Shown: one piece after another, positions 6,690-19,914 of the stretch
How positions within the stretch are numbered: position 1 is the stretch's first letter
Layout: every line of letters begins with the position of its first letter
From: a virus
DNA length: 64,000 bases
Reading direction: 5' to 3' (one strand)
IMG/VR virus record: IMGVR_UViG_3300044648_000206
Coordinates: 8,265 to 72,264 of that record
Notes under the pieces: generated by a model
Seen by the model: the letters and a program-made list of their open reading frames with translations, nothing else
What the model was told of the DNA's origin: nothing
Database searches by the model: none
Program-made: the position numbers and the translations under genes

Positions 6690-6952
6690 GGAGCGTCCTG
6701 GTCAGCGCGGAGCTGGCGCTGGTCTGCCCGTACTGCTCGGCGCAGAACACCATCGCCGAGGTGGAGCGGGCGCACCGCTACAACACCGTGCACGAGGCCG
6801 ATCGGCGCCCGGACGGCTCACTGGCTGTCCAGGTGTCGATCGGCACCGCGGACTACTTCCGCCACCTCGAGCACATCTGCACCAAGTGCGGAGCCAAGGT
6901 CGGCTGGCCGCCCAGGGGCGAGAAGAACATCGAGATCAACTACACGGAATGA
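6686..6952 (+). CDS. zinc-ribbon protein
   Basis: CPYC...CTKC. Confidence 0.65.
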   Translation: MRSVLVSAELALVCPYCSAQNTIAEVERAHRYNTVHEADRRPDGSLAVQVSIGTADYFRHLEHICTKCGAKVGWPPRGEKNIEINYTE

Positions 6953-7942: not shown

Positions 7943-8353
7943 GTGCCTCCAGCCCGACGCAAGCAGAAGAGCGGTCGCTCCGGCATCCCCAACGGAGCGA
8001 CCCGAGACCGACAGGTCTCCAAGCAGTACCGCGAGCGCAAGCACAACGAGAGGCGCGCTGAGCGGCTGGAGGAGGTCCGTGACCAGCAGCGGCGGCTTGA
8101 CGCGCGCATCCGCGCCGAGCAGGCTGCCGCTGCTGTCACGGAGAAGACGGAGGCCGCGCCGGTCGCCGTCGAGAAGCCCGACCCGCACCAGGCCGAGCTG
8201 GCCGAGCTGCGGCAGAACATGGAGAAGCGCGCCTTGTGGTCCCTCGGCGAGGCGCGCAACTTGATCAGACAGGGCTACTCACTCGAGGGCACTGTGCGCC
8301 GAACAGGCTGGAGCCCCGAGGATCTGGCCGATGTGGAGGTTGGTGTGTGGTGA
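7943..8353 (+). CDS. basic coiled-coil protein with C-terminal HTH-like segment
   Basis: ARNLIRQGYSLEGTVRRTGW. Confidence 0.6.
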   Translation: MPPARRKQKSGRSGIPNGATRDRQVSKQYRERKHNERRAERLEEVRDQQRRLDARIRAEQAAAAVTEKTEAAPVAVEKPDPHQAELAELRQNMEKRALWSLGEARNLIRQGYSLEGTVRRTGWSPEDLADVEVGVW

Positions 8354-10149: not shown

Positions 10150-10347
10150 ATGAAGCAAGGACTGCACCACGTCACTGGCTACCTGGCCTTGTTCGTGGTG
10201 CTTCTGCTGTTCCTGGGGCCGATCTGGGCTTTCCTGATCGGCTTCTTCGGCGTGCTGCTCGGTCCGATCTGGATCGGGCTCTTGCTCTGGTTCACCGGTC
10301 GGGCCATGCTGGTCGACCTATGGGGAGCCATCACACGCCGCCTCTAG
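10150..10347 (+). CDS. small membrane protein
   Basis: GGAGG RBS; hydrophobic, LGPIW repeated twice. Confidence 0.7.
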   Translation: MKQGLHHVTGYLALFVVLLLFLGPIWAFLIGFFGVLLGPIWIGLLLWFTGRAMLVDLWGAITRRL

Positions 10348-10504
10348 CTACGGGGGCTCACCGCGTCGGTTTCACCCCTGACGCCGGCACGGTGAGTTCC
10401 CGTTGGGCCCGTCCCAGCCGTCTCCCGGTCCGCCGGGTGAGATCCAGCGGCTGGGGCGGGCCTCCTGCTGTCATCAGTCAGGGGACCCACAGAAAGGACT
10501 GACA

Positions 10505-10714
10505 ATGGTCGGCTCGCTGACTGTGCTCAGGTCGGGTGAGGACACCCGCACCTGGGACACCGCTCAGCCGGACTCCGTCGAGGAGGTGCGCGCCAAGTTC
10601 GACGAGATCGTCGGCGCTGGTGGCACCGCTCTCGCCGGTGACGGCACCCGTCTCGACAAGTTCGACGAGACGCAGCCCGAGATCACCGTCCTCCCGCAGT
10701 ACCAGGGCGGCTGA
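10505..10714 (+). CDS. ubiquitin-like (ThiS/MoaD/CysO-type C-terminus) 69-aa protein ending in GG
   Basis: AAAGGA RBS; ends EITVLPQYQGG-stop. Confidence 0.65.
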   Translation: MVGSLTVLRSGEDTRTWDTAQPDSVEEVRAKFDEIVGAGGTALAGDGTRLDKFDETQPEITVLPQYQGG

Positions 10715-10730
10715 TCGTTCCGTGTGACCA

Positions 10731-10777
10731 GTGCCGCCCCGGGGCCATCTGCCCCAGTCCAGGCCTCGGGGCGGCAC
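10731..10777 (+). terminator. hairpin between the Ubl-like gene and its partner genes
   Basis: GTGCCGCCCCGGGGCC / GGCCTCGGGGCGGCAC. Confidence 0.55.
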
Positions 10778-10797
10778 GTCACGGAGAGGGGGTTGCA

Positions 10798-11235
10798 ATG
10801 TTCCGATCATCTGCGCGGGACAGCTGGACCGCGCTGGACGACGTGGTCATCCCGCAGCTACGGAAGCTGCTTGGTGACCGGTTCCCGCTCGAGGAAGAGA
10901 TCATTCAGATCTCGTGGGACAACGACCGGATGGAGCGCACGCTCTACTCGGTGCCGGTGACGAGCCTGCAGTCCGGCACCGTCTGGCGGGTGCTCTGCCA
11001 CGGCGGGATCAGCAACAACCTGCGGGTCGAGGCCCGGGGGAGATTCCGCGTGGCCAAGAAGGGCTCGCTCTGGCAGCTGAACGTGGGCGACCGGATGTGC
11101 TCGCAGCCAAGGGTCTGGCACGACGAGACCCCTCGGACCGGCTTCCGCATGGAGGACCACCTGGCGCGGTTCTACGCCGCCCAGGTCTTCGGACTGTGGG
11201 CAGCCGAGGACAAGCTGCTGGCGGTGGGAGAGTGA
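10798..11235 (+). CDS. conserved-Cys protein, paralog A
   Basis: VTSLQSGTVWRV..GG..NNL...MC...YAAQVFGL...EDKLL; aligns with the next ORF. Confidence 0.7.
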   Translation: MFRSSARDSWTALDDVVIPQLRKLLGDRFPLEEEIIQISWDNDRMERTLYSVPVTSLQSGTVWRVLCHGGISNNLRVEARGRFRVAKKGSLWQLNVGDRMCSQPRVWHDETPRTGFRMEDHLARFYAAQVFGLWAAEDKLLAVGE

Positions 11236-11588
11236 AGCGCCTACTGGACTACCTCAGCCCAGAGGAGGCCGCGGGTGTCCTGCCGCCCAGACGCCACGCG
11301 ACGTGGCCGTACGAGGGCCACATCCGGCTCGCGAGCGTGAGCACCGGCAACGTCTGGGACCTCAAGCTCGGCCCGTACTACGACGGCAACATCCAGGCCG
11401 TCGACATCAAGCAGCGAGTGCGGGCCCGGGACGGCTGGGTCGACGACGGGCACTGGGTCTGCGTCGGGGTGGTGACTGACCCGCAGTACCTGTTCAGTCG
11501 GCCGTCTGACTTCGAGCTGTCTTACATCGCCCAGTACCTGGCCCTCAAGTTCGACGAGAAGAACTTCATCGGCAGGGGGTACCTGTGA
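11232..11588 (+). CDS. conserved-Cys protein, paralog B
   Basis: GTGA overlap; LLDYLSPEE...LASVSTGNVWDL..G...GNI...VC...YIAQYLALKFDEKNFI. Confidence 0.7.
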   Translation: MKRLLDYLSPEEAAGVLPPRRHATWPYEGHIRLASVSTGNVWDLKLGPYYDGNIQAVDIKQRVRARDGWVDDGHWVCVGVVTDPQYLFSRPSDFELSYIAQYLALKFDEKNFIGRGYL

Positions 11589-11905
11589 CCGAGCACATCG
11601 ACAGTGGGCCGAGCGAGGAGTTTCCCGACCGGCCCGACCACCCGCACTTCCGGCTCCTGGCCAACCTGGCACAGGACTTGGACGGCGACACCGGGGCCCG
11701 AGCCCCTGGTCCGGAGGCCTTCTTCGAGGCCGAGAAGCTGGACGAGGCCTCGGTGTCCTACATGGCGGCCCAGCGCACCAACCGGGCCATCATGGCGGCC
11801 ATCCAGCTGGGGATCTCGAGCCCCGAGGTCATCATCCAGGCGGCGGTGATCGACGGCTTCGCCCTGGGCTACCTGATGGCCCTGAACCGCCCGGACCTCC
11901 CGTGA
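11585..11905 (+). CDS. hypothetical protein
   Basis: Coupled ORF; FPDRPDHPHFRLL...IDGFALG. Confidence 0.7.
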   Translation: MTEHIDSGPSEEFPDRPDHPHFRLLANLAQDLDGDTGARAPGPEAFFEAEKLDEASVSYMAAQRTNRAIMAAIQLGISSPEVIIQAAVIDGFALGYLMALNRPDLP

Positions 11906-12108
11906 CGTGGGGAGAGTCCTTGGAGGACGCCCGGAAGCGGCGCACACTCCAGGTACGACGCCTGACCCGCGAGCTACACATGGCCGAAGCCAGGCTCGCG
12001 CACGTCGAGTACATGATCCAGCAGCGCGACCGCCAGGCCCAGGAGGGCAAGCACCGGCGGCCGCAGCCTCAGCTGGTCACAGACACGGCTCCCCCAGGAA
12101 GGAGTTAG
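11902..12108 (+). CDS. small coiled-coil protein
   Basis: GTGA overlap. Confidence 0.55.
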   Translation: MTWGESLEDARKRRTLQVRRLTRELHMAEARLAHVEYMIQQRDRQAQEGKHRRPQPQLVTDTAPPGRS

Positions 12109-15392: not shown

Positions 15393-16565
15393 ATGGAGAA
15401 GATCAACGACAAGCTGCTGAACTGGGCCTCGATCCTCGAGGACAACACCCGCCGGCAGGCCGAGGCCACCTCGCGCCTGCCGTTCGTGTTCCCGCACGTA
15501 GCCCTGATGCCCGACGCCCACCTTGGCAAGGGCGCCACGGTCGGCTCGGTCATCCCCACCGAGCGGGCCATCATCCCGGCGGCGGTCGGGGTGGACATCG
15601 GCTGCGGCATGATCGCGGTCCGCAGCCAGTGGACCTGGACCGAGTGGCAGATCGTGACAGGGCCGAACCAGGCGCCGCTGCGGGAGGCCATCGAGCGGGC
15701 CATCCCGCTCTCGGCCGGTCGCTACAACGAGCGCCTGATCAACTCGGCCGATGCCAAGGCCCGCGAGCTGGACCGCACCGAGGGCATCGAGACGGCCGAG
15801 AAGATCGCCCCGTCCTGGCCCCGCCAGCTGGGCACCCTGGGCTCGGGCAACCACTTCATCGAGATCACCGTCGATGAGGCGGACCGGGTGTGGCTGTTCC
15901 TGCACTCCGGCTCCCGGGGCGTGGGCAACAAGATGGCCCAGAAGCACATCAAGACCGCCCAGGAGCTGTGCAAGCGGTGGCACATCCGGCTCGAGGACCC
16001 CGACCTGGCCTACCTGGTCGAGGGCACCGACGAGTTCTGGGCCTACATCCGCGACCTGCGGTGGGCCCAGAAGTTCGCCCTGCTCAACCGCGAGGAGATG
16101 ATGGACCGCCTCGTGAAGTGCGTGGAGGAGTTCACCCAGGTCCCGGTCATCCGGGAGCAGACGATCAACTGCCACCACAACTACACCGAGCAGGAGAAGC
16201 ACTTCGGTCGGCCGGTGTGGCTCTCGCGCAAGGGAGCCATCGACGCCTCCGAGGGCACCTGGGGGCTGATCCCGGGCTCCATGGGCGCGGCCTCCTACGT
16301 GGTGCAGGGCAAGGGCAACCGGGTGGCCCTGAACAGCTCCCCGCACGGAGCTGGCCGGGTGTTCTCCCGGGGCGTGGCCAAGCGGACCTTCACCCTGGAG
16401 GACCTGGCCGACCGGATGAAGGGCATCGAGTGGCGCGAGTCCAAGGCCTTCCTGGACGAGCACCCGGACGCCTACAAGAACATCGACGTCGTGATGGCTG
16501 ACGCCGCCGATCTGGTCGAGGTGAAGCACGAGCTGCACCAGGTGCTCAACGTGAAGGGGGACTGA
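15393..16565 (+). CDS. rtcB: RtcB RNA ligase
   Basis: MPDAHLGKG, VGVDIGCG, LGTLGSGNHFIE, LHSGSRG, HHNY, RKGA, IPGSMG, SPHGAGR, DEHPDAYK. Confidence 0.96.
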   Translation: MEKINDKLLNWASILEDNTRRQAEATSRLPFVFPHVALMPDAHLGKGATVGSVIPTERAIIPAAVGVDIGCGMIAVRSQWTWTEWQIVTGPNQAPLREAIERAIPLSAGRYNERLINSADAKARELDRTEGIETAEKIAPSWPRQLGTLGSGNHFIEITVDEADRVWLFLHSGSRGVGNKMAQKHIKTAQELCKRWHIRLEDPDLAYLVEGTDEFWAYIRDLRWAQKFALLNREEMMDRLVKCVEEFTQVPVIREQTINCHHNYTEQEKHFGRPVWLSRKGAIDASEGTWGLIPGSMGAASYVVQGKGNRVALNSSPHGAGRVFSRGVAKRTFTLEDLADRMKGIEWRESKAFLDEHPDAYKNIDVVMADAADLVEVKHELHQVLNVKGD

Positions 16566-17267: not shown

Positions 17268-18701
17268 ATGAAGCTGGAGTTCGTCGAACGACGAGCCGAG
17301 TACAGCGTCTACCGGGACCGGCGCGGGAAGCTGGTCTACCTCAAGGACGCCCCCGAGCTCAACGTCACCAACCCGCCGCTCTACCAGATCGAGACGCGCA
17401 CCCTGTTCCCGCCGCGCAGCAGCGACAACTCGAACCTCTACAACCACTGGATCAAGGCCCAGCGCAAGGGCATGACCCGCAAGACGTGGGTCGCGTTCCT
17501 GCAGGCGGTGCTCACCGACCCGGAGCCGGCCGAGGGGCTCACCTGGTGCAACCGCTGCGACGTCCCCACCGCGGAGGCGCTCGGCTCCAGGAGGTACGGC
17601 AGGGAGGACAGCGAGGTGGCCTGCGCCTCCTGCGCGACCTTCCTGCGGGAGTGCGACATGTGCCACACCCGCGTGGCGAATCGCGAGACGATCGGAAACC
17701 AGCGGGTCTGCCTCGAGTGCCGGAACGAGAACTTTCGGGCCTGCCGAGCCTGCGGTATCTACATCTCGAACGACGAGTACGAGCTTCACCACAAGCACGG
17801 GGTGGGTTGTTGCGAGTCCCCTGCCCTGGACTTCCAACTCCGGTGGCTCGACAACCCTCCGCTGGTGAGCGACACCAAGACGGTGATCACCATGGGTGCC
17901 GGCCAGGTCGACCCGGCCGGCTACGACCGGCTCGAGGCGTGGCTGAACCAGAACGGCTTCTTCCACGAGTCGGCGGTGCTTCGCAGGATCGAACCGACCT
18001 GGCAGAAGAAGGAGGGCAACTTCCCCAAGCGGCTGAGCAAGGAGGTCTGGAAGACCTACGGCCGCAAGGTGCCCGAGCCGGCGATGGCCATGATCGGCAC
18101 CATCGGTGCCGAGCACTCGGCCAAGCACGCCGAGCTGACGGTGATGGTCAGCCGGCGGCTCAACGAGTCGGCGTCCTTCTGGTACCACGAGGGCTCCTGC
18201 TGGTGGAGCAGCGCCTACGCCAGCCGCTGCGCGCTCAAGACCAACGGCGGGTTCGGGATCGTGACCTACTCGAGCCCGCGGCACTCCAAGCCCAACGGCC
18301 GGTGCTGGGTGCTGCCGGTGAAGAGGGGTGAGCGCGGCTACCTCAAGCCGACCTTCGACACCATGGACCCGGACGGCTTCATCGTGTTCAACGGCTACGG
18401 CGCGCTGGTGGACTACTCCGGCGCCCGGGTCATGGCGGCGTTGGCTGGGATGAGCTACACCAAGATCCAGTTCGCGCCGAAGAACCCGCTCTACGTCAAC
18501 TCCGGCGGCTACCTGGTCGGCAGTGAGGAGTTCGTCTCCCAGTTCACGGACGGGGTGGTCTACATGCACACCATGGAGGCGCACGCCAAGCTGTTCGAGC
18601 AGGAGCAGAAGGAGGCCGAGCAGGTGGCCCTCGGCGAGGAGCTCCCCAAGCTCCCTGCGAAGAAGCGTGCGGTCAAGAGGCAGTTCGATGTCGTCGCCTG
18701 A
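17268..18701 (+). CDS. multi-Zn-finger protein with SCWW...GRCW C-terminal domain
   Basis: Five CxxC pairs followed by a globular domain; GGAGG RBS. Confidence 0.7.
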   Translation: MKLEFVERRAEYSVYRDRRGKLVYLKDAPELNVTNPPLYQIETRTLFPPRSSDNSNLYNHWIKAQRKGMTRKTWVAFLQAVLTDPEPAEGLTWCNRCDVPTAEALGSRRYGREDSEVACASCATFLRECDMCHTRVANRETIGNQRVCLECRNENFRACRACGIYISNDEYELHHKHGVGCCESPALDFQLRWLDNPPLVSDTKTVITMGAGQVDPAGYDRLEAWLNQNGFFHESAVLRRIEPTWQKKEGNFPKRLSKEVWKTYGRKVPEPAMAMIGTIGAEHSAKHAELTVMVSRRLNESASFWYHEGSCWWSSAYASRCALKTNGGFGIVTYSSPRHSKPNGRCWVLPVKRGERGYLKPTFDTMDPDGFIVFNGYGALVDYSGARVMAALAGMSYTKIQFAPKNPLYVNSGGYLVGSEEFVSQFTDGVVYMHTMEAHAKLFEQEQKEAEQVALGEELPKLPAKKRAVKRQFDVVA

Positions 18702-19914
18702 GGTGCGAGAAGAGGTCCGGGAGCCGGAGACCATCCGGGGCCGGATCATGGCGGCCTTCGACCGCGACGAGCTGAGCCGGATCTGCACGCTGCCGGAACG
18801 GCGGTTCGCCAAGGCTTACGGGCTGCGGCGGTACAAGGTCGAGCAGCCCCAGCCGTACCGGTCGGGGACCGGGGTGCTGGTCGCCCCTGCCGCGCCCCCG
18901 TCGTACCGGTACACCTGCCCGGACGACTTCTTCGCCTACCGGGACAACGGGTCGAACATCCTGGCGGTGGCCCACCTGGACACCGTCGTGATGCCGATCG
19001 ACCGGATGTGCGACTTCGCCGAGACCGCCGATGGCACGGTGGTGCACTCTGGTGCCCTGGACGACAGGCTCGGCGCTTACGTGATCCTCGACATGCTCCC
19101 GAAGCTGGGGATCAACGTGGACGTGCTGCTCACCACCGGTGAGGAGTCCGGCAAGTCCACGGCCAAGTTCTTCCAGCCGCCCAAGGGGAAGGACTACCAC
19201 TGGATGATCGAGTTCGACCGCGGTGGCACTGACGTCGTGATGTACCAGTACGACTCCAGGGACATGGATGAGATCGTCCGCTACTCGGGTGCCAAGACCG
19301 GCAACGGCGCGTTCTCGGACATCTGCTACCTCGAGCATCTGCTGATCAAGGGCTTCAACTGGGGCGTCGGGTACCAGGACTACCACGGGGTGCGCGGCTA
19401 CGCCTACCTCGAGGACCTGTTCCAGATGCTCACCTACTTCGTGCGGTTCCACGACATGTGGGCCGACACGAAGCTCGACCACGACCCCAAGGACAAGAAG
19501 TCCGGTCGGGGCTGGTGGCGTGGTGGCGGCGGTGGTCACCACCACGGTAGGCATGACCACAGGAGAGGAGGACCTGGAGGGCTCTGGGGCGCCCAGAGCG
19601 GCAGTGGGGGTTGGTGGGACGACCCGCCACCCACGGTCAAGGACAAGAAGGACAAGGACGACGGAGAGGACAAGAAGCGAATGAGCAGTGCTGCAAGCGT
19701 GCTCGACGACATCGAAGGGCCGGGGCCGATGGTCTTGGCCGGAGACACCCAGGGCGAGATCGAGGTGATCTCGCTGGACGAGGTCCTGGAGGCGGTGGGC
19801 AGCGACGGGCTGGACAAGCTCGTCGACGACCCGCGCCTGGCGGGCTCGCCGAAGTGGGGCGACAGCCTCGCGACGTCGGACCCGACCGACCCTGAGTTTG
19901 TGAGCCCGGCATGA
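18688..19914 (+). CDS. M28/M20-like zinc exopeptidase with low-complexity tail
   Basis: AHLDTV, ALDDRLG, TGEESG, EFDRGG, FSDI, GVGY.DYH metal-ligand pattern. Confidence 0.8.
   Translation: MSSPEVREEVREPETIRGRIMAAFDRDELSRICTLPERRFAKAYGLRRYKVEQPQPYRSGTGVLVAPAAPPSYRYTCPDDFFAYRDNGSNILAVAHLDTVVMPIDRMCDFAETADGTVVHSGALDDRLGAYVILDMLPKLGINVDVLLTTGEESGKSTAKFFQPPKGKDYHWMIEFDRGGTDVVMYQYDSRDMDEIVRYSGAKTGNGAFSDICYLEHLLIKGFNWGVGYQDYHGVRGYAYLEDLFQMLTYFVRFHDMWADTKLDHDPKDKKSGRGWWRGGGGGHHHGRHDHRRGGPGGLWGAQSGSGGWWDDPPPTVKDKKDKDDGEDKKRMSSAASVLDDIEGPGPMVLAGDTQGEIEVISLDEVLEAVGSDGLDKLVDDPRLAGSPKWGDSLATSDPTDPEFVSPA

Follow-up and report, generated by a model that had tools for sequence, protein, structure and literature searches.

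In a soil phage, a short gene whose product ends in Gly-Gly, followed by genes for two small proteins with an aligned cysteine, raises the question of whether a virus carries its own protein-tagging system. The locus lies in a window of 64,000 nucleotides (positions 8,265 to 72,264 of the virus record IMGVR_UViG_3300044648_000206), and every feature described here is on its plus strand. The original prediction took the first gene to encode a ubiquitin-like protein (Ubl) and the other two to encode paralogous conjugating proteins. Translation confirms the first of these, ORF A (10505-10714), as a frame of 69 codons for an acidic protein (pI 4.2) ending EITVLPQYQGG directly before the stop codon, and a ribosome-binding site, GAAAGGA (10492-10498), is read 6 nt upstream of its ATG. 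ORF B (10798-11235) encodes 145 residues and follows after a spacer of 83 nt. ORF C (11232-11588) encodes 118 residues, as in the form on record, and begins with a GTG that overlaps the TGA of ORF B (GTGA).

The family to which ORF A belongs, as a divergent member, is large and unnamed. A k-mer homology search with ORF A returned only ORF A itself, and among GenBank phages neither tblastn of ORF A nor blastn of the locus gave a match. A full HMMER scan recovered 20 small relatives (E 9e-9 to 9e-4), 19 of them ending in GG and one in GGE; the long matches P0005, P0007 and P0020 are repeat proteins matched in many stretches and were excluded as spurious. A related-locus search started from P0008 gave a single match, inside a tail-like protein of 463 residues, which was rejected as false. 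HMM searches of flanking DNA added seven Ubl copies, five with a GG end and two with an AG end. Among these 27 homologues, found regardless of how they end, GG is present in 24, GGE in one and AG in two, and the conservation of the terminal GG on which the original prediction depended is thereby borne out. F32, F53, G68 and G69 (ORF A numbering) are invariant across the alignment of the HMMER relatives. A degenerate DNA pattern drawn from the relatives was then used to extend the family. It matched at least 119 stretches of metagenome DNA and 113 of viral DNA, and the 226 ORFs that these matches yield in frame all pass the family HMM, as do 67 of the 74 pattern matches on bacterial genome contigs. 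These 226 and 67 loci are uninformative on GG conservation because the pattern itself demands GG followed by a stop. Related-locus searches started from ORF B and from P0022 found nothing.

The fold expected for a Ubl is also recovered. A single-sequence AF2 model of ORF A (pLDDT 77, pTM 0.62) places its elements in the order strand-strand-helix-strand-strand, with strands at residues 4-8, 14-18, 41-44 and 59-63 and a helix at 22-37, and a typical family member reaches pLDDT 86 within the complex model described below. Foldseek ranks ubiquitin, ISG15 and SUMO first, none with an E better than 1.3e-2, and the VIA list consists of beta-grasp folds throughout, its best Z being 5.1. Together, the model and the Foldseek and VIA rows lend moderate rather than strong support to a beta-grasp-like fold for ORF A. 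By sequence, ORF A and five typical Ubls have no Pfam match at E ≤1, the ThiS, MoaD and ubiquitin models included; the family has no match in NCBIfam or PHROGs, and a search of PDB sequences with the Ubl profile gave no relative below E 0.02. In the ESM Atlas, the closest cluster that bears a name is of the ThiS family, with a weak score of 0.77. ORF A does not fit the features of Pup, which is disordered and ends in GGQ or GGE: it is predicted to be folded and ends in GG. A GGE end is seen in one of the 20 Ubl relatives.

The Ubl gene does not stand alone. Where enough downstream sequence is available, 136 of 151 loci have an ORF with a common partner domain no more than 1.5 kb beyond the Ubl gene and on its strand; the partner ORF is present at 49 of the 67 genome-contig loci. 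In 123 of 153 loci, an in-frame start falls at -8 to +30 nt relative to the Ubl stop codon. The genomic linkage of a GG-terminated Ubl with a cysteine protein family, proposed from a single locus, is very strong. Neighbour clusters 2, 3 and 6 (antisense ORFs over the Ubl gene) and 5 (out-of-frame GC-rich ORFs) were disregarded; no other neighbour family occurs in more than 15 of 206 loci, and no conserved third gene was found. The partner protein has a variable, often low-complexity N-terminal part and a conserved C-terminal domain of about 100 residues. Among 215 aligned domains a Cys is conserved in 206, an Asp in 207 and a Pro in 196; on inspection, most of the nine Cys exceptions reflect misalignment or a cut at 130 residues that missed the domain. 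Partners end in Ala-Ala in 62 of 219 cases, an ending that recalls a protease degron. The partner family has no match in Pfam, NCBIfam or PHROGs, PADLOC matches neither Ubl nor partner, and the partner profile finds nothing below E 0.02 among PDB sequences.

ORFs B and C carry divergent copies of this partner domain. ORF B lacks the usual long N-terminal region and has the conserved residue at Cys101 (codon 11098-11100); in ORF C it is Cys77 (codon 11460-11462). The proposal that B and C are paralogues stands when they are compared through the family profile and is not significant when they are compared with each other. With the whole 72-kb record divided into 906 six-frame segments, the partner-domain HMM ranks the frame of ORF C best (E 0.0032, 15.4 bits) and that of ORF B second (E 0.019, 11.2 bits), and the motifs originally noted as shared by the two (G-x-VW, G..N[LI], the Cys and AQ...L...E..[LF]) are conserved columns of the domain. 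Pairwise BLASTP gives E 0.43 on an unrelated stretch of nine residues, and the local alignment score of B with C is matched by 258 of 2000 shuffles, or by 52 to 247 of 1000 with other gap settings. K-mer homology searches with B and C returned only themselves. The profile result establishes B and C as members of the partner family. Gene 2 of the module is thus duplicated in this phage and trimmed to little beyond the domain; two or three partner genes are also present at nine other loci. ORFs D (11585-11905) and E (11902-12108) continue the same translational chain, each joined by a GTGA overlap to the preceding ORF. Neither matches the partner HMM (E 0.36 and 0.37) or shares a neighbour cluster with other Ubl loci, ORF D has no Pfam or PHROG match, and there is no sign that D and E belong to the module.

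The predicted structure of the partner domain bears on whether its cysteine could carry a Ubl. The model (pLDDT 92.4, pTM 0.82) comprises two helices, a four-stranded meander and two further helices, and the near-invariant Cys, residue 59 of the model, sits at the end of strand 54-59, ahead of helix 68-81. Compared by order only, these elements resemble those of the E2 (UBC) fold and its relatives, including a Cys that follows the last strand and precedes the next helix. RWD and UEV domains are catalytically dead members of the E2 fold. Ubc9, RWD, FANCL and UEV chains head the VIA list, and UBC, RWD and UEV folds make up 13 of its best 50 rows; this list is weak, its best row being Ubc9 at Z 4.3 (rmsd 3.4 Å over 80 aligned residues) with no chain at Z 5, in a fold search where chance alone typically brings models that have no match to Z 7-8, and a second VIA search reached Z 3.3 at most. 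The partner fold thus has no clear relative among solved structures. The differences from E2 enzymes are considerable. The domain has about 100 residues against about 150 for E2, the family consensus holds Gly-Asn-[VI] 15 residues before the Cys in place of an HPN motif, and Foldseek found no match in the PDB (best E 0.74). ORFs B and C and five typical partners have no match to Pfam UQ_con or Prok-E2 at E ≤1. Given the low Z of Ubc9 and the lack of both an HPN motif and a Pfam E2 match, the partner was not classed as an E2 enzyme.

Ubl and partner are predicted to form a tight complex. This was modelled with custom alignments for a typical pair, that of locus L096, rather than for ORF A with B or C of this phage. 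Three runs gave ipSAE 0.67, 0.69 and 0.69 against 0.02 for the best control; of 80 solved complexes 58 attain this ipSAE mark, as do 2 of 110 mismatched pairs, counts that apply only roughly here because custom alignments were used. The runs share at least 93% of their contacts, and the partner chain has pLDDT 86. In the model, the last seven Ubl residues (68-74) lie along partner residues 66-74, in a groove of the partner's most conserved residues formed by the Cys loop, the Pro, the Asp and the helix after them; the conserved Cys is here C66. The placement of the GG tail at the partner cysteine, as envisaged originally, is predicted by the model of the typical pair, which passes its controls. 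The predicted interface has 94-98 contacts on a domain of 110 residues, a size more suggestive of a permanent heterodimer than of a transient contact between enzyme and substrate.

In Ubl systems the C-terminal Gly is activated by an adenylating enzyme (E1). The earlier observation that the window holds no E1 extends to the whole 72-kb record, which is 93% complete and has no ThiF-family gene (PF00899). Among 40 other carrier records, 6 hold such a gene and 34 lack it; of the 25 that are at least 90% complete, 4 hold it. In four of the E1-bearing records, 14-52 kb separate it from the Ubl gene. Neither JAB nor other DUB, E2 or E3 genes occur as conserved neighbours of the Ubl loci. The use of a host-encoded E1 is possible. 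The module is found in hundreds of uncultured phages of soil and groundwater with GC contents of 30-73%; it is carried mainly by phages, yet is not specific to them. In one planctomycete family it is a near-universal, single-copy core gene pair (75 of 81 genomes). A genome-wide search at E 0.01 with a partner profile from a smaller alignment misses the divergent partner in four Isosphaeraceae-type genomes, where a larger local HMM finds it. Prok-E2_B was found in none of 151 Planctomycetota genomes and in no control.

Our data are consistent with a model in which ORFs A, B and C form one functional unit, a divergent copy of a widespread unnamed two-gene module that works by a thioester relay; with the tagging step included, this is a plausible reading towards which we lean slightly less than away. 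In the module, gene 1 encodes a predicted beta-grasp protein of about 70 residues with a Gly-Gly C-terminus, and gene 2, usually coupled to it at a distance of a few bases, encodes the partner. Because the phage encodes no E1, activation of the Ubl C-terminal Gly is proposed to fall to an adenylating enzyme of the host, of the MoeB, ThiF or MoeZ type. The partner Cys may then take the activated Ubl as a thioester in the manner of an E2 and pass it to targets picked by the variable part of the partner, in which case B and C could provide two target specificities. Since neither this phage nor most carriers encode an E1, covalent tagging is a step that we infer. In its most specific form the model describes a minimal Ubl conjugation module of GG beta-grasp protein and Cys carrier that lacks an E1 and borrows the sulfur-carrier E1 of the cell, whereby phages would tag host or phage proteins and B and C would differ in targets; we regard this form as tentative and somewhat doubtful. 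The Cys carrier would in that case be an unrecognised, very divergent relative of E2 or an independent invention. Counted against tagging are the two AG ends among the 27 unbiased family members, the weak E2 likeness, the absence of an E1 and the large interface.

Several of these observations suit a permanent non-covalent complex, in which the GG tail plugs or completes the Cys pocket, much as antitoxins occlude the active site of their toxins, and the Ubl regulates, chaperones or inhibits its partner with no conjugation at all. In molybdopterin synthase the GG tail of MoaD inserts into MoaE, and the predicted complex is likewise one of two proteins with a beta-grasp GG tail buried in the partner; the partner differs in having no match to MoaE in Pfam or by fold, and no molybdopterin genes are nearby. 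The confidence and extent of the predicted interface, a tight gene coupling that suggests equimolar synthesis, and the lack of an E1, a JAB protein or any other conserved neighbour all fit such a complex. A small acidic upstream protein with a larger downstream one also recalls type II toxin-antitoxin pairs, with which the predicted tight complex agrees as well. The degron-like Ala-Ala end of many partners likewise suits this reading. However, a plug needs no terminal Gly, yet Gly ends the aligned core in all 27 members (26 stop there and one adds Glu), and a binding pocket needs no Cys, yet the Cys is near-invariant. The module matches no toxin, antitoxin or defence family, and single-copy core status in a bacterial family would be unusual for a toxin-antitoxin pair. 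A purely non-covalent role is possible but somewhat doubtful. ThiS, MoaD, CysO, SAMPs, TtuB and Urm1 offer a different precedent, that of sulfur-carrier or dual-function Ubls. Such proteins need only a stand-alone E1 (PMC9574740, PMC2948915). A host E1 would here convert the Ubl Gly to a thiocarboxylate, and the partner would use the sulfur, its Cys forming an acyl-disulfide or persulfide. The small beta-grasp fold with its GG end fits this role, as do the ThiS-family cluster nearest in the ESM Atlas, the MoaD and SAMP structures within the weak VIA matches of ORF A, the lack of nearby E2, E3 and DUB genes, an E1 that could be encoded elsewhere and shared, and core status in one bacterial family. 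The Ubls nevertheless match no ThiS or MoaD model even at E 1, and their obligate partner has an unclassified Cys domain unlike MoaE, ThiG, CysM or TtuA in sequence or fold. No biosynthetic genes are linked, and the variable N-terminal parts and the duplication of the partner within phages fit a choice of targets better than metabolism, making a sulfur carrier unlikely.

The original prediction also allowed for a decoy, with ORF A soaking up or blocking a Ubl, Pup or defence pathway of the host and the Cys proteins as unrelated neighbours. The portal of this phage has its nearest counterparts in Arthrobacter phages, and actinobacteria have Pup. Bacterial Ubl-based defence does exist, and the conjugation operons that serve against phages include Bil (Ubl, E1, E2 and DUB), Bub and related systems, and CBASS Cap2 (10.1101/2023.09.04.556158, PMC10557695, PMC11601596, PMC10097602, PMC11601603). 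Against a decoy stand the linkage of Ubl and partner and their predicted complex, a predicted folded beta-grasp structure with GG in place of the disordered GGQ or GGE tail of Pup, and the lack of a PADLOC match. The presence of the pair as core chromosomal genes in one bacterial family argues further against a purely anti-defence or decoy role; as a sole purpose this part of the earlier proposal is disfavoured, and the decoy reading as a whole is highly improbable. The module does share with Bil, Bub and Cap2 the adjacency of a C-terminal-Gly beta-grasp protein and a conserved-Cys protein, and the weak E2-type likeness of the partner extends to a BubCD chain (Z 3.2). It differs in that those systems encode an E1 and usually a deubiquitinase, whereas no E1 or JAB gene is linked here, in matching none of their components in PADLOC or Pfam, and in consisting of two genes carried mostly by phages rather than in defence islands. 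The bacterial Ubl conjugation systems described in the parts of the literature consulted all have their own E1, usually with an E2 and a deubiquitinase, and all lie in host defence operons.

The GG-terminated Ubl with its Cys partner is mainly phage-borne, needs no E1 gene of its own and has no counterpart among curated families. Should it conjugate, it would be the smallest Ubl system known and the first shown in phage use. It would also offer a route by which sulfur-carrier E1s were co-opted for tagging, which bears on the origin of ubiquitin signalling. Otherwise, it remains a pair of phage proteins that is very common, lacks any annotation and is confidently predicted to form a complex. 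In either case the bacterial family that holds the module as a core gene pair provides a tractable way to its function.

The original prediction further proposed that hairpins around ORF A set the ratio of Ubl to its partners. Strong hairpins do flank ORF A, as shuffle tests confirm. Two adjacent stem-loops (10350-10403 and 10405-10463) lie between an upstream ORF for a small membrane protein and ORF A, and the region that contains them (10345-10504, 160 nt) folds at -96.8 kcal/mol (z -5.98), as good a value being reached by none of 200 shuffles. A stem-loop in the spacer between ORFs A and B (10723-10783), with no U-tract following it, has a core stem of -51.7 kcal/mol (z -4.35, again none of 200 shuffles as good). 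A scan for consensus promoters and terminators found none near ORFs A-C. RNA-library contigs end at 10722-10724 in all four runs, a weak hint in favour of an excess of Ubl over its partners. Such an arrangement is unusual for the family, whose two genes are as a rule coupled at a distance of a few bases. In some runs the same contigs cover B, C and D incompletely, which is no evidence of absence. Hairpins like these are frequent in this phage and not special to ORF A: when the window is folded in sliding segments of 60 nt, 46 regions come out similarly strong, and about 20 of the 46 fall within the first 21 kb.

The Gly-Gly-ended ubiquitin-like protein (Ubl) encoded by ORF A and the Cys-domain partners encoded by ORFs B and C belong to two families that are tightly linked in the genome, one with a conserved terminal Gly-Gly and the other with a conserved Cys. 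ORF A (10505-10714, + strand, 69 aa) is preceded by a GAAAGGA ribosome-binding site, and its product terminates in ITVLPQYQGG-stop. K-mer searches with ORF A returned no relatives. When 1.84 billion representatives were scanned in full with HMMER, 24 proteins scored E 0.001 or better: A itself, 20 small relatives and three long repeat proteins, the last set aside as spurious. The small relatives (67–83 aa, E 9e-9 to 9e-4, 37–54% identity) align end to end, are all of metagenome origin and are named no further than 'hypothetical protein'. They terminate in GG in 19 cases and GGE in one; F32, F53, G68 and G69 never vary, and W17 and V25 hardly do. A degenerate DNA pattern built on the conserved residues (W-D, V, F, F-D and GG-stop) hit the window once and none of 100 shuffles, and recovered at least 119 metagenome, 113 IMG/VR and 74 genome-contig stretches. 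An in-frame ORF is present at 226 of the 232 metagenome and viral loci, all 226 passing the family HMM (205 distinct sequences), and at 68 of the 74 genome loci, where 67 pass. Because the pattern itself requires GG-stop, these loci are uninformative on GG conservation. Seven more Ubl copies, found in the flanks by HMM only, end in GG (five) or AG (two), giving a pattern-independent tally of 24 GG, 1 GGE and 2 AG among 27 termini. The Gly-Gly end, on which the original prediction of a phage tagging cassette was built, is therefore conserved among homologues found independently of it.

Neither A nor typical Ubl members match Pfam, NCBIfam, PHROG or PADLOC, and a PDB sequence search found no relative. 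ESM Atlas neighbours fall solely in clusters that lack a name, most of them viral; the closest cluster with a name is ThiS, at a weak score of 0.77. The single-sequence AF2 model of A (pLDDT 77, pTM 0.62) has a strand-strand-helix-strand-strand topology. Its top Foldseek rows are ubiquitin, ISG15, SUMO and PB1 domains (E 1.3e-2 or worse), and VIA returns β-grasp chains throughout (best Z 5.1), including RnfH, MoaD, SAMP1 and Urm1-like chains. The modelled topology and the VIA rows support, with moderate confidence, the β-grasp fold originally proposed. A typical Ubl matches only two of 50,697 GenBank phage records, an uncultured phage of 595 kb and Virus Rctr197k, with the genes given as hypothetical; a typical partner domain matches none of them. 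In Virus Rctr197k (KX853510.1; carrier locus L309:1318-1572) a CRISPR repeat region, adjoined by a transposase-like gene, is annotated ~1.2 kb upstream of the Ubl-partner genes.

At 206 loci all the ORFs lying up to 6 kb from the Ubl gene were clustered, which revealed one dominant neighbour, a ~215-aa protein encoded directly downstream on the same strand at 145 loci; no further real neighbour family occurred in more than 15. This partner comprises a Thr/Ser-rich, low-complexity N-terminal region, in which W-x-x-W motifs occur at least twice in 81 of 151 partners (e.g. L096:1029-1679:+ and L155:4481-5200:-), a charged helical stretch and a conserved C-terminal domain of ~100 aa with the consensus g..yri..g..gn.......g.....lC.......P..D....q.l.l...e..f...an. 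Among 215 partner domains the Cys is conserved in 206, the Asp in 207 and the Pro in 196, the nine Cys exceptions being on inspection mostly artefacts of the 130-residue cut or of alignment. When an HMM of this domain was applied to the 151 loci with at least 800 nt downstream, 136 carried it within 1.5 kb downstream of the Ubl gene, which bears out the predicted linkage; at the other 15 the partner mostly overlaps or lies upstream. An in-frame start falls −8 to +30 nt from the Ubl stop at 123 of 153 loci, most commonly at 1, −1 or 2 nt. Nine loci have two or three partner genes, and at five a second Ubl adjoins a second partner. Some phages hold two complete pairs (loci L083, L182, L158, L226 and L185); in two double-pair phages the second Ubl ends in AG and its partner retains the Cys. 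The partner C-terminus is Ala-Ala in 62 of 219 cases and Val-Ala or Arg-Ala in others (L003-L308, e.g. L187:379-1068:- and L066:3310-4041:-), reminiscent of ssrA-type C-terminal degrons. ORFs B and C have no such terminus.

The proposed paralogy of ORFs B (10798-11235, + strand, 145 aa) and C (11232-11588, + strand, 118 aa) does not reach significance in pairwise comparison and stands through the family profile. BLASTP aligns the two at E 0.43 on an irrelevant stretch, and their local alignment score is reached by 258 of 2000 shuffles (52–247 of 1000 at other settings). The domain HMM, built from the protein that follows the Ubl gene elsewhere, scores C at 15.4 bits and B at 11.2 bits, with the subsequent ORFs D and E below zero. 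In a six-frame control of 906 segments of the phage record, C ranks first (E 0.0032) and B second (E 0.019), with the third at E 0.17. The motifs earlier described as common to B and C coincide exactly with the conserved columns of the domain, and a MAFFT alignment shows the nearly invariant Leu, Asn, Cys, Asp, Gln, Leu and Glu retained in both, the Cys being Cys101 in B and Cys77 in C. B and C thus belong to the domain family, and the phage carries the module with its partner duplicated and cut down to the domain; the Thr/Ser-rich N-terminal region is absent from both. GTGA overlaps join B/C, C/D and D/E, and the 83-nt hairpin spacer between A and B is unusual for the module.

AF2 modelled the partner domain from a 62-row alignment (pLDDT 92.4, pTM 0.82) with helices at 2-9, 13-22, 68-81 and 83-89 and strands at 24-28, 34-38, 45-48 and 54-59, the last closed by Cys59. 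Foldseek found no solved relative (best E 0.74), and an exhaustive VIA search no chain at Z 5 or above. The best VIA chain was Ubc9 (Z 4.3, 3.4 Å, 80 residues), with UBC, RWD, FANCL or UEV folds, including a BubCD chain, in 13 of the best 50 rows, and a second look gave unrelated chains at Z 3.3 at most, all values within noise by the tool's own yardstick. The E2 likeness of the modelled partner should be treated as no more than a lead. Matches to the model in BFVD are two viral proteins without names (E 8e-6 and 2.4e-4) and a weak one from Agrobacterium phage Atu_ph07 (E 0.17).

ESMFold2 models of the Ubl and partner domain from L096, a typical pair (59-row alignment each), reached ipSAE 0.67, 0.69 and 0.69 against 0.02 for the best control, with at least 93% contact agreement and a partner-chain pLDDT of 86. 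The ipSAE mark is passed by 58 of 80 solved complexes versus 2 of 110 mismatched pairs, counts that are approximate here given the use of our own alignments. The models support rather than demonstrate binding and place the Gly-Gly tail at the partner Cys as anticipated. Since Ubl residues 68-74, including both glycines, contact partner residues 66-74, from Cys66 to the conserved Pro74, the conserved residues of both proteins are predicted to converge at one site; the tail also contacts 77, 80-81, 84-85 and 96-98. Sequence and fold searches found no solved complex of like kind, so the score is unlikely to stem from model memory.

As the original prediction stated, no E1 is encoded: the ThiF family is absent from the phage record. 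Among 40 further records of carriers, just 6 include it (4 of the 25 at least 90% complete), and Prok-JAB occurs in 6 of 41, only one above cut-off. In four large carrier phages (G001, G009, G020 and G024) ThiF and JAB genes lie side by side, 14–52 kb from the Ubl gene, and may represent a separate phage-borne E1-JAB pair. Given this scarcity, any activation of the Ubl must be host-supplied or unconventional. In the publications found, PMC11601603 among them, every Ubl system described (Bil, Bub, CBASS Cap2 and the sulfur carriers) comes with an encoded E1. An E1-less pair of Ubl and Cys-domain protein in phages is not described in the published titles and abstracts found, and supplementary tables may hold such families unnamed.

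The module also resides in chromosomes. One subfamily (MAKLRLLKTGHGD...PAIQGG) accounts for 35 genome-contig matches (L239, L250, L281, L296 and 31 further loci), whose records bear the titles Isosphaeraceae, Singulisphaera, Tundrisphaera, Tautonia or other Planctomycetota; its ~287-aa partner shares the C-terminal domain and differs in its N-terminal portion. The Ubl gene is found in 75 of 81 sampled genomes of the planctomycete family, nearly always once, making the pair a near-universal single-copy chromosomal pair there. The neighbours are housekeeping genes that differ between genomes, including aldehyde dehydrogenase, glycosyltransferase, methionyl-tRNA synthetase, DUF1501 and HhH-GPD glycosylase. 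Contigs of Acidimicrobiia, Chloroflexota and Dehalococcoidia also contain matches, and carrier loci range from 30% to 73% G+C. The pair, core to one family amid varying neighbours and spread across carriers, therefore forms a self-contained module: it fulfils a cellular role in one lineage and often travels in environmental phages.

Our tentative first choice for its function is a thioester-type hand-over, a chemistry that we infer. The terminal Gly of the Ubl would be activated by a host MoeB/ThiF/MoeZ-type enzyme and the activated Ubl passed to the partner Cys. We rank this first because acyl transfer would call for just such a meeting of a strictly terminal Gly with a near-invariant Cys, and because the variable N-terminal parts and duplicated partners resemble target selectors. 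The large predicted interface and the missing E1 would suit a permanent, non-covalent Ubl-partner complex, which is possible if doubtful. The Ubl fold and the core-gene status of the pair would fit a sulfur carrier, a role made unlikely by a partner that is not synthase-like. The decoy once offered as an alternative is very improbable in view of the Ubl-partner linkage and the chromosomal copies.

The 72,264-bp IMG/VR record, of which the window (68% G+C) spans bases 8265-72264, has an estimated completeness of 93% and represents a tailed phage, with genes for a DnaB-like helicase, RtcB, a tape-measure protein, Mu-type portal, E-type major capsid protein and XkdF-type protease. A soil actinobacterium is the likely host since the portal is nearest to Arthrobacter phage portals (47% identity); every run containing the stretch is a soil or terrestrial metagenome. 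The RtcB RNA ligase is full-length (E 1.9e-112) and another product weakly matches M28 peptidase (E 4.6e-5), the two genes lying at 15393-16565 (+) and 18523-19914 (+).

The hairpins reported to flank ORF A were confirmed, with two stem-loops upstream (10350-10403 and 10405-10463; z −5.98) and a stem-loop core downstream (10723-10783; z −4.35), neither region equalled in stability by any of 200 shuffles. A sliding fold found 46 regions of comparable strength in the window, and such hairpins are a general habit of the phage's small-gene region. None of these hairpins has a U-tract. Some 20 highly stable GC-rich stem-loops that lack U-tracts are found between the small genes of window 1-21000 (+ strand), among them those near 6791, 8081, 9361, 12921, 13471 and 13631; they are possibly terminators of the actinobacterial, factor-independent type or else sites of RNA processing. 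A small and strongly hydrophobic ORF (10153-10347, + strand, 64 aa), without a family match, ends just 5′ of the upstream hairpins. Part of the stretch is present in six RNA-library runs, of which four, soil metatranscriptomes from four studies represented by contigs only, were compared with the window. Window-identical contigs (10327-10724) cover ORF A in all four and end in each at the base of the downstream hairpin (10722-10724); short pieces fall on B, C or D in two. DNA carry-over is possible in such contigs, which do not rank genes, and they hint weakly at transcription of ORF A, with a transcript 3′ end or a stall of reverse transcriptase frequently falling at the hairpin.
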